From assembly GCA_963762255.1 (NCBI GenBank), contig CAVXKA010000001.1, forward strand, positions 1,391,222 through 1,455,221: a DNA stretch of 64,000 bases. The letters run 5' to 3'. Position numbers and translations under genes: made by a program. Shown piece after piece: positions 2,533 to 35,161 of the stretch. Positions within the stretch are counted from its first letter, which is position 1, and each line of letters begins with the position of its first letter. The stretch is from Candidatus Eiseniibacteriota bacterium. GTDB lineage: Bacteria > Eisenbacteria > RBG-16-71-46 > JABDJR01. A model generated the notes under the pieces. It saw only the letters and a program-made list of their open reading frames with translations. It ran no database searches and had not been told where the DNA came from.

Positions 2533-2544
2533 TGGTAGCGGGGG
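2533..2544 (+). repeat. att core, left copy (duplicated tRNA 3' end)
   Basis: TGGTAGCGGGGG, identical to 35118-35129 (reverse complement of CCCCCGCTACCA). Confidence 0.9.
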
Positions 2545-2647
2545 CGTACTTTGGAGCTATTCATAACATCCTTGGGGATCGCCTCAAGCGAACCGTTGTG
2601 ATCCCCCGCCGGACTTCCCGGTCCGGCCCGCAAAGTACCCCCAGACC

Positions 2648-31096: not shown

Positions 31097-33458
31097 GAGA
31101 ACCCCTGACGGTCGGCACATTGCCTGGTGCCCATTCCATCCCGATGGGCAGGGGACGCCGCCGCATCAGGCGAATCTCCTGGTCTCCGACCGGGGCTTCA
31201 TTTGCCACGCATGCGGGGCGCAAGGAAGTCTTCGGGACTTAGCGGGGCGGTTGGAGATTCCGACCAGCGCCGCAGAAGTGGTCTACGTCTACCAGGACGC
31301 TGACGGCAATGACAAGTTCCGGATCGTCCGGCGGGCCGGCAAGAAGTTCTCAGTTCAACATCGCAACAAGAGCGGTGGATGGAGCAAGGGCCTCGGGCCT
31401 GCCGTCCGTGTCATCTACCGGCTGCCCGAGATCCTGAAGTCCGAGTCCAACGTCCCGGTCTTCATTGTTGAGGGCGAGAAGGACGCTGACCGACTCGCTG
31501 CGAATGGCCGCATCGCCACCACCAACCCCTTTGGTGCCGGCAAGTGGCGGCCTGAGTACAACGAGCCGCTGCGGGATCGCAACGTGATCATCATCCCCGA
31601 CAACGATGAGGCGGGTCGAAACCACGCCATAGTCGTCGCGCAGTCCCTCACTGGGGTGGCCAAGTCCATCAAGGTCGTTGCGTTGCCAGACCTCGACGAG
31701 AAAGGTGACGTTTCGGACTGGCTGAATGCTGGTCACACGATCGAGGACCTCGACCGCGTGGTCGAGGCATCTCCCGTCTGGACAGCGGACGAAGGAGAAG
31801 AAGCTTCGCCGATGGGGGTCCGCGACGGCGACCCGAAAGACCTCGTGCGGACGCTCCTGGACGAGGGCATCGAGCTGTTCCACGACCAATTCAAGGTTCC
31901 CCACGCCCGGGTTCCCGTGGATGGACATTGGGAGAACTGCGCTCTGGGGGATTTCGGCTTCAAGCGGTGGGCGGCTCTCCGATACTACGAACGCACCGGG
32001 AAGATGCTGCAACGAGACAAGTTCAGCGCAGCCCTGCTCGTGCTCGAGGCCAAGGCTGCCAACGAAGCGCCCCAGCGAGAACTTCACACTCGCGTAGCCA
32101 ACTTCGAAGGCGCGATCTGGTACGACTTGTCCGATCGGGACTGGAGATGCGTGCGCATTGCGCCGGATGGTTGGGAAGTCGTCTCTGACCCGCCGATCCT
32201 CTTCCGGCGGTGGCCTCACCAGCAGCCGCAGGTCGAGCCTGTCCGCGGTGGATCCCTCGGGAACATCTTCAACTTCTTGCCCCTGTCGCGAGCGGAGTGG
32301 GAGACGTTGCTTCTGCCCTACCTGGTGGCCTGTCTGGTGCCTGACATCCCGCATCCAATCCTAGCTACGTTTGGCCCGAACGGCGCCGGGAAGAGCACGA
32401 TCAGTCGCATCTTCAAGATCTTGATCGACCCGTCCACGCTGGCAACTCTGGCCTTTGGAACTGACCAAGCGGGACTCGTTCAGCAACTCTCTCACCACTA
32501 CTACGCGTGCTATGACAACGTGTCGGCGCTCCCGGATTGGGCGAGCGACTTCCTGTGCCGAGCATCTACTGGAGAGGGATTCACGAAGCGCGGTCTGTAC
32601 ACGAACGACGAGGACTTCATCTACGCCTACCGGCGCTGCGCGAGTCTCAACGGGCTGAACCTCGTCGTTCTGAAGCCCGACCTGCTGGATCGAACGATCC
32701 TGGTGCACGTGGAAGGGATCGGAAAGACGGAACGGCGGGAGGAGAAGGAGTTCTGGACGCAATTCGAGAGCGTGAGAGCCCGGCTTCTGGGAGCGGTCTT
32801 CGACGCGCTGAGCGTCGCCATGAAGGTCAAGACTGCTCAGAAGCACAAGGATCTTCCCCGCATGGCCGACTTCGCGGCGTGGGGAGCCGCTGCCGCCGAA
32901 GCCATCGGCATTGGCAGCCAGACCTTCCTGGACCACTACGCTCGCGACGAGGGCGCCCGCATCGAGGAGCTGATCTGCGAGGACCCTCTGGCACTGGCGA
33001 TCGTTGAACTCGTGCGGGCTCGGGGGTCATGGAGTGGCCTCGCGAGCGAGCTTCTCAAGGAAGTGAAGAGGTGGGGCCACATGGAGAACGCCGACCAGCA
33101 CGATGCCCGTTGGCCCAAGACCCCCAATCGCCTGTCCGCCCGACTGAACGAACTTCAGGCCAGTCTGGGCAAGGCCGGGGTGGAGTACCGCGGTCGTCGG
33201 ACCAACCAGGGGAAGTGGATCGATCTTCGCCCCCTCGACGTGCCCGCTAGCCCAGGAACGCCCGGCAAGGACGGTGACGGTCTTCGTGGGGGATCGTCAC
33301 CTCGAACTGCGGGGGGATCGTCACTCCGTAACAAGTTGACTGGCAACGTGTTAAGCGGTAACTGTGGTTTGAGTGACGATGATGACGATCCTTCTGCCCC
33401 CACTGGTGGCTCGGCTTCACGCAGCGACTCACCCCGGATGGGGGCCTTGGGGAATTGA
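31047..33458 (+). CDS. DNA primase-helicase (CHC2-type Zn finger, Toprim, P-loop)
   Basis: CPFH...CHAC; VFIVEGEKDADRL; IIPDNDEAG; GPNGAGKST; GGAG before ATG 31047. Confidence 0.85.
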   Translation: MNELLNSALAHLNLTGKRTPDGRHIAWCPFHPDGQGTPPHQANLLVSDRGFICHACGAQGSLRDLAGRLEIPTSAAEVVYVYQDADGNDKFRIVRRAGKKFSVQHRNKSGGWSKGLGPAVRVIYRLPEILKSESNVPVFIVEGEKDADRLAANGRIATTNPFGAGKWRPEYNEPLRDRNVIIIPDNDEAGRNHAIVVAQSLTGVAKSIKVVALPDLDEKGDVSDWLNAGHTIEDLDRVVEASPVWTADEGEEASPMGVRDGDPKDLVRTLLDEGIELFHDQFKVPHARVPVDGHWENCALGDFGFKRWAALRYYERTGKMLQRDKFSAALLVLEAKAANEAPQRELHTRVANFEGAIWYDLSDRDWRCVRIAPDGWEVVSDPPILFRRWPHQQPQVEPVRGGSLGNIFNFLPLSRAEWETLLLPYLVACLVPDIPHPILATFGPNGAGKSTISRIFKILIDPSTLATLAFGTDQAGLVQQLSHHYYACYDNVSALPDWASDFLCRASTGEGFTKRGLYTNDEDFIYAYRRCASLNGLNLVVLKPDLLDRTILVHVEGIGKTERREEKEFWTQFESVRARLLGAVFDALSVAMKVKTAQKHKDLPRMADFAAWGAAAAEAIGIGSQTFLDHYARDEGARIEELICEDPLALAIVELVRARGSWSGLASELLKEVKRWGHMENADQHDARWPKTPNRLSARLNELQASLGKAGVEYRGRRTNQGKWIDLRPLDVPASPGTPGKDGDGLRGGSSPRTAGGSSLRNKLTGNVLSGNCGLSDDDDDPSAPTGGSASRSDSPRMGALGN
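33274..33392. repeat. Iteron-like repeat array (candidate origin) in the primase 3' end
   Basis: GTGACGGT 33274, ATCGTCAC 33293 and 33317, an AT-richer spacer, then inverted GTGACGAT 33373 and ATGACGAT 33382. Confidence 0.6.
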
Positions 33459-35161
33459 CGACGAGCATGGCAAGTTCACCACTGCTTGATTCCATCATAA
33501 AGTCCCGGACGGAGCTCGGGTCTGCCGCCCCGCGCAAGGCGCGCGCCGTGGCTTGGGCGCGAGTCTCAACCGACATGCAGGAGGAACGGGGGCTCTCCCT
33601 CCCCGAGCAGCTTCGCCAGATCCGCGAGTACGCCGAACGGGAGGATATTGAGGTTCTCGAGGAGTACTCCGAGGCCGCCAGCGCCTATCAGAAGAAGGCC
33701 CGGAGGCCCGAGTTCCTCCGGATGCTCCAGCGGGCCAAAGATGACCCCGAAGTCACCACCGTTCTCGTCCATGACTTCTCTCGCTTCTCTCGCGACAGCA
33801 TGAACTGCAGGATCCTGATCCGGCAGCTCCGGGAAGGCGGTGTCGAGGTCGTTTCCGTCTCGGACCCGATGTTTGACCCGGAGTCGGTGACCGGGGTCTA
33901 CATGGAAGCGATCACCTTCGCCAAGAACGAGGCGTACAGCAAGGAGGTCGCGTTCCACACCCGGAAGGGCTGTCGGGCCAATGTCCAAACCCGCGACCCC
34001 GAGATGGGGTGGTGCTACAAGAACGGGGGGCAACCTCTCTGGGGCTATCGGTCCGCGCGCCTCGATCGGGGTGGGCGACGCGGGAAGCCTATCTTGAAGA
34101 GCATCTGGGTGCTGGATGACACCCTGGTCGCCGGCCGCCCTCTCTACGAGTGGGTCCGGGAAACGCTGGCGCTGGCCGCGGAGGGTGCCACGCTGGATGA
34201 GCTACGCGACTTCTGCAATCGCAAGGGGATCAAGGCGCCCAGGAAGCAGTATTGGGGCCAGTCCACGATGTTCGCTCTCCTGCAGCCACATGTTCTGCTC
34301 AAGTACGCCGGCTTCGATGTCTGGAACGTCCACCGGAAGAACGGCAGCAAGCGGCCGCCGAGCGAGTGGGTGATTGTCGAACGCGCGCACGAGCCCGTGA
34401 TTTCCGAGGAATTGGCCTCCAGAATCCGGGCGGCTCGTGAACGGGCTGGCCAGTTCGGTTTCCGGCCCCGCCAGAGCCGCAGCGTCAATTCCCCCTACCT
34501 ATTGACCGGGGGACTCTTTGTGTGCGGGCGCTGCGGAGCCAACATGATCGGGTACAAGACCGCCTCAGGCACGTACTACGTCTGCGGCAGTCAGCCCTAC
34601 CGGCGGGGGATGGGATGTGGGAGCGGGGTGTACGTCCCCAAGGACTACATCGAGGGCGAGGTGCTGGCCGGGGTGCAGGAGATCATTCGCGCCCGGCTGG
34701 ACCCCGAGCAGTTCTCCCACCGGGTGAATCAGGAGGCAGACCGGCTGTGGGAGGCCGAGCACGGGAAGCAGCCCGACCTCGGCCGCCAGATTGCCGAGAT
34801 CGAGAAGAAGGTCGCTAACCTCCGGAAGGCGCTCGAGGACGGGCTCTCAGACGCCACCTGGGCGAATGAGCGTCTCAACGAGCTTAGTCGCGAGCGGGGT
34901 GCCTTGGTGCACCCGGAGTCGGCCCCGGCGAGGCCCCCCAAGCTCGATTCCCAGGCCGTAACCCGATATCTCGCCAACCTGTCCAAGATGCTAGAATACG
35001 CTAGCGTGAGGGAGCGCAAGGACTTGATGCAGATGATGGTGGAGAAAATCGAACTGGCCCCGGAGCGGCGATCGGTAGAGATCGTCTACCGCGCTCCGGA
35101 GCCAGTTATGAATAAGGTGGTAGCGGGGGTTGGATTTGAACCAACGACCTTTGGGTTATGA
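33455..35161 (+). CDS. Large serine recombinase (integrase); last codons supplied by the antisense tRNA
   Basis: WARVSTDMQ catalytic Ser, HDFSRFSR, recombinase domain, Zn ribbon CGRCG...YYVCG...C, coiled coil; ends VVAGVGFEPTTFGL with the stop inside the tRNA anticodon region. Confidence 0.95.
   Translation: MTTSMASSPLLDSIIKSRTELGSAAPRKARAVAWARVSTDMQEERGLSLPEQLRQIREYAEREDIEVLEEYSEAASAYQKKARRPEFLRMLQRAKDDPEVTTVLVHDFSRFSRDSMNCRILIRQLREGGVEVVSVSDPMFDPESVTGVYMEAITFAKNEAYSKEVAFHTRKGCRANVQTRDPEMGWCYKNGGQPLWGYRSARLDRGGRRGKPILKSIWVLDDTLVAGRPLYEWVRETLALAAEGATLDELRDFCNRKGIKAPRKQYWGQSTMFALLQPHVLLKYAGFDVWNVHRKNGSKRPPSEWVIVERAHEPVISEELASRIRAARERAGQFGFRPRQSRSVNSPYLLTGGLFVCGRCGANMIGYKTASGTYYVCGSQPYRRGMGCGSGVYVPKDYIEGEVLAGVQEIIRARLDPEQFSHRVNQEADRLWEAEHGKQPDLGRQIAEIEKKVANLRKALEDGLSDATWANERLNELSRERGALVHPESAPARPPKLDSQAVTRYLANLSKMLEYASVRERKDLMQMMVEKIELAPERRSVEIVYRAPEPVMNKVVAGVGFEPTTFGL
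35052..35107 (-). terminator. Long hairpin inside the integrase 3' end, candidate surrogate tRNA terminator
   Basis: Arms 35052-35067/35092-35107 (15/16 match), inner CGGTAGA/TCTACCG; 10 nt downstream of the tRNA CCA on minus; followed by CGATTTT. Confidence 0.45.

Follow-up and report, generated by a model that had tools for sequence, protein, structure and literature searches.

A reconstructed attachment site inside a large serine recombinase gene, with a predicted exchange of the enzyme's C-terminus on integration at an initiator tRNA gene

The stretch of DNA analysed here (64,000 nt in full length, referred to below as the window) comes from Candidatus Eiseniibacteriota bacterium (assembly GCA_963762255.1, contig CAVXKA010000001.1, positions 1,391,222 to 1,455,221 of the forward strand), and most of its left half is taken up by what is probably a phage-related integrative element of 32.6 kb, inserted at the 3′ end of an initiator tRNA-Met gene by the large serine recombinase (LSR) that the element itself encodes. 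A 12 bp core sequence, TGGTAGCGGGGG, occurs twice in the window, at 2533–2544 (the attL core, + strand) and at 35118–35129 (the attR core, + strand), and nowhere else in the 64 kb. The right copy corresponds to the CCA end, the discriminator and the acceptor 3′ strand of a tRNA-Met(CAT) gene located by ARAGORN on the reverse strand (35118–35194), and since the core copies this CCA/acceptor end, the tRNA gene is regenerated on integration. The tRNA is of the initiator type, with a 1:72 mismatch and a GGG/CCC anticodon stem, and is the only one of that type among the three CAT tRNAs of the assembly (4.14 Mb, 93.6% complete).

The integrated element extends from 2545 to 35129 (32,585 bp), and its G+C content of about 0.60 differs from that of the flanks (0.66–0.68). 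Its limits are confirmed independently by empty sites in relatives: in the same-family genomes G005, G006 and G007 (also G003 and G004) the site is uninterrupted, with hairpin, core and tRNA contiguous at 90–91% identity. The hairpin in question, AGAGCCCC...GGGGCTCT (2493–2525, reverse strand), is rich in G+C, has a T-run on the tRNA strand, lies immediately to the left of the left core, and is the one that adjoins the tRNA at the empty sites of G005–G007. It looks like the terminator of the tRNA gene, shifted 32.6 kb away by the integration event, and it forms the outer B arm of attB/attL. A genome of the same genus (G001) has the tRNA and the core without an insert or an integrase, and the terminator hairpin there is a different one. 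In the prophage state, transcription of int runs antisense into this tRNA gene, the sole one of the initiator type in the genome (C1/C3).

The integrase gene (int) lies at the right end of the element (33467–35161, + strand) and in its integrated form encodes 564 aa. The protein is a large serine recombinase. It carries a catalytic resolvase domain (PF00239, E 1.8e-21), followed by matches to the Recombinase (PF07508) and zinc ribbon (PF13408, Zn_ribbon_recom) families, and the residues R32-V33-S34-T35 and Q38 of its catalytic motif, ARVSTDMQ, are invariant in 30–48 homologues. Long helices are predicted by AlphaFold at residues 392–481, after the Cys cluster, and a fold search with Foldseek matched the full-length phiC31, SPbeta and Bxb1 integrases (probability 1.00). 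The database gene call (P0001, 528 aa) starts at Met37 and drops the ARVSTDMQ motif (window 33467–33577); the longer start at 33467 agrees with the family alignment. Among cultured phages and plasmids the best match to the integrase was at most 29% identical, so none of them supplies a characterised attP form.

In the window the integrase open reading frame (ORF) ends ...PEPVMNKVVAG-VGFEPTTFGL-stop. The conserved LSR domains all end upstream of the core, which occupies codons 551–555 of the 564-codon ORF, its last base being the first base of codon 555. Residues 555–564 (VGFEPTTFGL) and the TGA stop that follows are read from the tRNA gene in antisense, the stop (window 35156–35161) being the antisense of U33-C34-A35 in the tRNA anticodon loop.

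When position 35129 is joined to 2545, the junction reads GTTATGAATA-AGG-TGGTAGCGGGGG-CGTACTTTGGAGC-TATTCATAAC, a 48 bp sequence with perfect 10 bp inverted arms and with the last GG of the core as its centre of symmetry. Random joins of window positions gave arms of at least 10 bp in 51 of 20,000 trials. The P arm of this reconstructed attP, GTTATGAATA-AGG (35105–35117, + strand), codes for V-M-N-K of the integrase, and together with the core it encodes residues 547–554 (V-M-N-K-V-V-A-G). The P′ arm (2545–2567, + strand) ends in TATTCATAAC, the mirror of the right-end GTTATGAATA, and has palindromic equivalents in three related loci (L003, L130 and L144). The identity shared by attP and attB amounts to 12 bp, and the central dinucleotide, GG, is non-palindromic; from the symmetry, crossover is likely to take place at this GG. 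The predicted attP junction is then ...GTTATGAATAAGGTGGTAGCGGGGG joined to CGTACTTTGGAGCTATTCATAAC..., and the predicted junction of the empty attB is ...CTCTCAACGGTTGGTAGCGGGGG joined to TTGGATTTGAACC....

The join preserves the int frame. The predicted circle of 32,585 bp would encode an integrase of 603 aa that shares residues 1–554 with the integrated form and continues into 49 element-encoded residues, AYFGAIHNILGDRLKRTVVIPRRTSRSGPQSTPRPSSPSSLSRNRKDGG, followed by a TAG stop. These 49 codons and the stop are stored at the left end of the element (2545–2693, + strand, plus the last core base), where they are read only with the ends joined, and the TAG (2691–2693) abuts an ATG at 2694. Much of this had been put forward in the original prediction, namely an attP lying inside int with an exchange of the C-terminus, its 48 bp extent with perfect 10 bp arms centred on GG, an integrated end KVVAG-VGFEPTTFGL-stop taken from antisense tRNA, and an in-frame join giving a 49-aa tail with its TAG against the ATG at 2694 and a circle of 32,585 bp; all of these were reproduced, the attP position and the C-terminal swap being recovered from the core copies, the ORF and the joined ends. 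Judged from these sequences, the architecture and the two isoforms that it predicts are very probably correct.

The same layout recurs among related enzymes. A protein search returned 393 relatives at 52–60% identity, and the C-terminal ends of the best 120 of these were classified. Antisense-tRNA ends were found in 85 of the 120: 73 end in ...VAG[AV]GFEPxTxGL-stop, 11 end in ...SGSGGWI-stop or ...RI-stop, which uses another frame, and one is a long read-through. The remaining 35 have different ends and are mostly 575–633 aa long. In the SGSGG subfamily the int stop is located in the T loop of the tRNA instead. At the nucleotide level, 135 loci were collected from species-representative genomes and metagenomes, 130 of them with a readable int 3′ end. 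The 3′ end reads into a tRNA in 84 of these 130 (67 called as tRNA-Met CAT and one as tRNA-Glu by ARAGORN), continues into other tails in 37, and is cut by a contig end in nine. The hosts include Armatimonadota, Acidobacteriota, Planctomycetota, Verrucomicrobiota, Aminicenantes, Brocadiaceae and others, a spread across phyla that is explained by the high conservation of the target, the initiator tRNA 3′ end.

More distant recombinases, 25% identical and carried on Paracoccus, Novosphingobium and Bradyrhizobium replicons, align to the final residue. The one on pFER4 of Paracoccus ferrooxidans (L145, CP038202.1, 1474–3159) ends in MVAGVGFEPTTFRL-stop inside a tRNA-Met(CAT) gene, and because this enzyme shares the layout, the arrangement reaches well beyond the family of the window and could be studied in a cultivable host.

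The stored tail was compared with those of relatives. It aligns without gaps to the commonest tail class (L003, L050, L130, L133, L119, L028 and L144), whose first 27 or so residues comprise a hydrophobic helix, a short strand (R-W/T-x-L/I-P) and an Arg-rich end (x-G-R-H/R). The constraint on the first 8–9 tail codons, which mirror the P arm, acts at the DNA level. The frame test was applied to codons 10–27 in eight sequences (the window and seven relatives), which are 41% identical in nucleotides. Amino-acid identity is 0.36 in the int frame (mean BLOSUM62 score +1.21) and 0.12–0.24 in the other five frames, and 2000 column shuffles gave a mean of 0.17 and a maximum of 0.26, none as high as the value observed. 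Stop codons occur in the other frames in most of the eight sequences. Identity at the three codon positions of the tail is.48/.54/.31, and arginine codons switch between AGR and CGN. The pair formed by the window and L144 gives.525/.65/.325, with the conserved residues L, R, T, V, P, R, P and Q all specified by different codons. The tail motif lies 56 nt past the core in the VVAG subfamily. In the SGSGG subfamily, where int crosses the core in another phase, the distance is 58 nt, so that the motif falls in the int frame in both. Conserved in-frame read-through in homologous elements, a check proposed in the original prediction, was thus positive for the tail class of the window.

Two other sources of conservation were considered and rejected. 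An overlapping antisense gene does not account for the tail, because the int frame is the best of the six and the antisense frames have stops in several sequences; conservation of codons 10–27 at the nucleotide level was rejected by the column-shuffle control. Structure prediction also separates the two ends. In the attP form of L003, AlphaFold2 places a helix at 555–570 and a strand at 571–575 (pLDDT, the per-residue confidence score, 76 for the block), followed by a disordered Arg-rich end, and in the integrated form of the window the tRNA-derived end (552–564) has a pLDDT below 50. From the alignments, it is quite likely that the tail is a protein module under selection. These enzymes would then make up a widespread LSR family, so far uncharacterised, whose target is the initiator tRNA and which appears to exchange a selected C-terminal module at each recombination.

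The junctions without a tRNA include two kinds. Attachment sites of the attP type with mirror arms are present at L003 (GTTATGCATT...AATGCATAAC, with the same 48 bp geometry as in the window), L130 and L144. Other non-tRNA junctions are joints in tandem arrays on complete chromosomes of metagenome-assembled genomes, in which a related but distinct integrase lies 33–86 kb upstream of the tRNA-adjacent one. Arrays of two to three LSR elements at one tRNA-Met were found at L003/L004 (OY969415), L040/L015 (OY760504), L028/L010/L009 (JAXGLP010000001) and L041/L045 (OY970325). L003 and L004 are 87% identical in nucleotides, and their homology ends exactly at the core. In each array the inner integrase runs into the tail stored at the left end of the next element; the resulting junctions are P/P′ hybrids, which is unexpected for serine integrases. 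The sequence beyond the CCA end differs among empty sites. These joints suggest that an incoming attP recombines with an existing attR or attL, or that the enzyme ignores the sequence beyond the CCA end.

Further details of the arrays were observed. At L041 (5440–5640), the stop of one tail is followed by another core-like sequence and another tail frame (..MLRQYAPPVLAAW..), as if orphan tails had been stacked up by successive integrations. In the OY760504 array, the inner integrase (L040, 4001–5760) appears to be frameshifted, with a break in the tblastn match and an in-line stop, and may be decaying. Separately, several genomes of the same class as the window carry extra copies of the tRNA-fMet 3′ half, 45–56 nt long and 4–40 kb from the intact gene (G024:C8:119228–119283, G036:C113:13815–13867, G015:C35:126731–126782 and G019:C9:3777–3822). 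Other elements that have longer repeats probably use the initiator tRNA as an integration hot spot.

The remaining genes of the element are those of a phage-related island. They include a primase, a ParB-like protein, a D12 methyltransferase, TerS/TerL, HNH nucleases and a J-domain/TonB_C protein, with the methyltransferase, ParB, TerS and TerL genes forming a block at 4227–8241. Defence by restriction is represented by a PLD-helicase and a type ISP-like methylase/specificity pair (9428–16034). A small tyrosine-recombinase-like ORF of 194 aa lies on the reverse strand at 16952–17536 (PHROG integrase, E 7e-26). Genes for capsid, portal or tail proteins went undetected within the element (2545–35129), which has the look of a reduced or satellite-like island related to phages, and no repressor gene was found at either end of it.

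The primase-like gene (31032–33458, + strand; PHROG DNA primase, E 2e-20) is directly upstream of int and overlaps its alternative TTG start, and a primase is linked to int in 18 related loci. The left-end proteins of the window had no homologues in the 135 related loci, where int is kept and the primase often so. The first left-end gene (2694–3581, + strand; 295 aa, without a confident family) is the one whose ATG abuts the TAG of the tail, and in the circle it would run co-directionally with int. This abutment recurs only in L050/L126, and the next gene is convergent in most attP-like loci. Operon coupling of int to the left-end packaging genes was rejected as a family trait since the abutment is not conserved, a result that, like the several unrelated tail classes and the few junctions with very short tails, also speaks against a universal switch between the isoforms.

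The proposed course of events is as follows. Integration would swap the residues after 554 for 10 antisense-tRNA residues and a stop, giving the 564-aa enzyme, and the circle would encode the 603-aa enzyme, whose 49-residue tail is stored at the opposite end of the prophage. The tailed enzyme made from the circle would be the complete, integration-competent form. The enzyme made from the prophage, having lost the tail module, might differ in its activity, in its stability or in its response to a recombination directionality factor (RDF), as IntX of Mx8 differs from IntP. There is about an even chance that the two isoforms are functionally different.

Several observations weigh against this account. 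The 37 non-tRNA junctions comprise at least four recurrent tail classes, miscellaneous tails and six very short ones (1–10 residues), and some of these junctions are hybrid array joints, not true attP sites. The motif of the window itself is degenerate (IPRRTSR, against LPRxGRH in relatives). The ratio of nonsynonymous to synonymous differences (pN/pS) in the tail is only about 0.63, with pS saturated, so that the constraint is weak in comparison with the enzyme body. Confidence of AlphaFold in the tail is moderate. A search of the viral contigs of IMG/VR for excised forms gave 30 pattern matches, none of them a relative.

The heterogeneity of tail classes, the degenerate motif and the weak constraint are also what favour the alternative that survives best, which is that the swap is a neutral by-product. 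A tRNA-like core must adjoin the integrase, and the C-terminus would then be exchanged without consequence for recombination; any conservation of the tail would reflect generic needs only, such as a structural cap, a basic end and a well-placed stop. The position of the conserved LSR domains, all of which end before the core, is in keeping with this, and so is the requirement that both isoforms be catalytically competent, the tailed one to integrate and the tail-less one to excise. Such an explanation has more difficulty with conservation that is specific to the int frame, the best of six, and that none of the shuffles reproduced, with the compensation of frame between subfamilies, and with a tail that is predicted to form a helix and strand where the tRNA-derived end is disordered. 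In Mx8, moreover, a swap of this type can alter activity. A neutral origin is a serious possibility, at somewhat under even odds.

A functional difference could take the specific form of directionality control, which we regard as doubtful. The C-terminus of the enzyme would record the state of recombination: the tail, acting in cis at the hinge between zinc ribbon and coiled coil, would set integration, and its removal by integration would leave an enzyme with another direction, activity or RDF response, amounting to a self-contained directionality memory encoded in the protein. With such a built-in switch, which the original prediction had suggested for direction or stability, the tailed enzyme would integrate, the tail-less form could or could not be turned to excision, and the arrangement might replace an RDF. 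The probable selection of the tail as protein is in its favour. The phiC31 structures show the far C-terminal end of the enzyme forming part of the zinc-ribbon surface to which the RDF binds, so a C-terminal module could plausibly affect direction, and an Arg-rich tail could act in cis at a surface of this type. Fusions of an RDF to the C-terminus of Int control direction, and one such fusion was used for the phiC31 structures. On the other side, a tail that favours integration would promote re-integration after excision, and the tail classes are heterogeneous. A separate RDF is also possible, as RDFs have no common signature.

It is rather unlikely that the element is an immobile relic, with the open frame across its joined ends a fossil and no circle formed today. 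The virion genes that were looked for went undetected and the tail motif is partly degenerate, both as would be expected of a relic, but int is intact with all of the invariant catalytic residues, the core copies are identical and the 10 bp arms perfect, the G+C content is still distinct from that of the host, and the same-genus relative G001 lacks the element, indicating a recent insertion. Least probable is a stability switch, in which the circle tail would be a degradation signal or a stabiliser and the integrase level would follow the integration state: one tail class does have ssrA-like ends (...RIGLAA, ...SGLTA or ...VGIAV) and the last tail residues are predicted to be disordered, but the tail of the window ends ...RNRKDGG and most of its class are Arg-rich, not LAA-like.

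Serine integrases are the main tools for the insertion of large DNA. They normally work in one direction only, and reversal takes a separate RDF. If the exchange of a selected tail proves to be functional, a C-terminus that changes with each recombination would be a new and simple coupling of DNA state to enzyme behaviour, and if it did govern direction, a protein-encoded directionality memory would exist in a widespread LSR family whose target, the initiator tRNA, is universally conserved. The attB of this family, which is mostly the initiator tRNA 3′ end and so among the most conserved of bacterial sequences, could give portable attB sites. The tandem arrays suggest a tolerance of any sequence beyond the CCA end, which bears on how serine integrases read attB. 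For annotation, hundreds of ORFs labelled 'recombinase family protein' and ending ...GFEPxTFGL are chimeras with antisense tRNA, and conserved frames that lack a head at the far end of such islands are stored integrase tails.

In architecture the enzyme of the window is close to the phage serine integrases (phiC31, Bxb1, SPbeta SprA, A118/LI and TP901-1), with which it shares the order of resolvase, recombinase and zinc-ribbon/coiled-coil regions and full-length fold matches, and the attachment site has the same properties as theirs: a short attP with inverted arms, a non-palindromic central dinucleotide and a short identity between attP and attB. To our knowledge, the serine integrases that have been studied have attP outside the int coding sequence, and their targets are mostly protein-coding genes, whereas the element of the window carries attP within int and targets the 3′ end of the initiator tRNA. 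An attP inside int with a tRNA target is a feature of the archaeal integrases of the SSV1 type, where the gene is partitioned on integration. The SSV1 Int is a tyrosine recombinase, however, and is split into large N- and C-terminal parts, while the enzyme of the window would lose a terminal tail only.

Integration-dependent immunity in mycobacteriophages of clusters G, N and P reportedly relies on an attP in the repressor gene and a tyrosine integrase, with integration removing an ssrA-like degron (Broussard et al. 2013). The location of attP in a gene and the alteration of a protein C-terminus by integration are shared with the window, but the gene is here the serine integrase itself, and its tail appears to lack a degron-like end (..KDGG). 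The Paracoccus phage vB_PamS_Pami6 is active and has a serine recombinase at tRNA-Met, in a description that does not mention an overlap of attP and int or a swap of tails (PMC6536676). It and the alphaproteobacterial LSRs such as L145 share with the window a serine recombinase at tRNA-Met(CAT), at only about 25% identity. In the literature searched, no report of an attP inside a serine integrase gene was found, an absence that is not proof.

The closest parallel is Mx8, where attP lies within the integrase coding sequence, integration at a tRNA gene produces a recombinant int with a new 3′ end (PMC6070905), and the prophage form of the integrase, IntX, derived from IntP, has a reported change in activity (PMC6070905; Tojo et al. 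1996; Magrini et al. 1999). Both systems have attP within int, integrate at a tRNA gene and replace the C-terminus in doing so, but the Mx8 enzyme belongs to the tyrosine recombinases and has a long, complex attP, and the enzyme of the window is a serine recombinase with a 48 bp attP. Mx8 is said to exchange about 112 residues for 13, and the element of the window would exchange 49 for 10, after the last conserved domain. The enzyme of the window thus resembles the Mx8 Int in layout and is not a member of its family; the swap through an attP inside int is known for tyrosine integrases such as that of Mx8, and its serine-integrase version, as predicted here, appears to be new.

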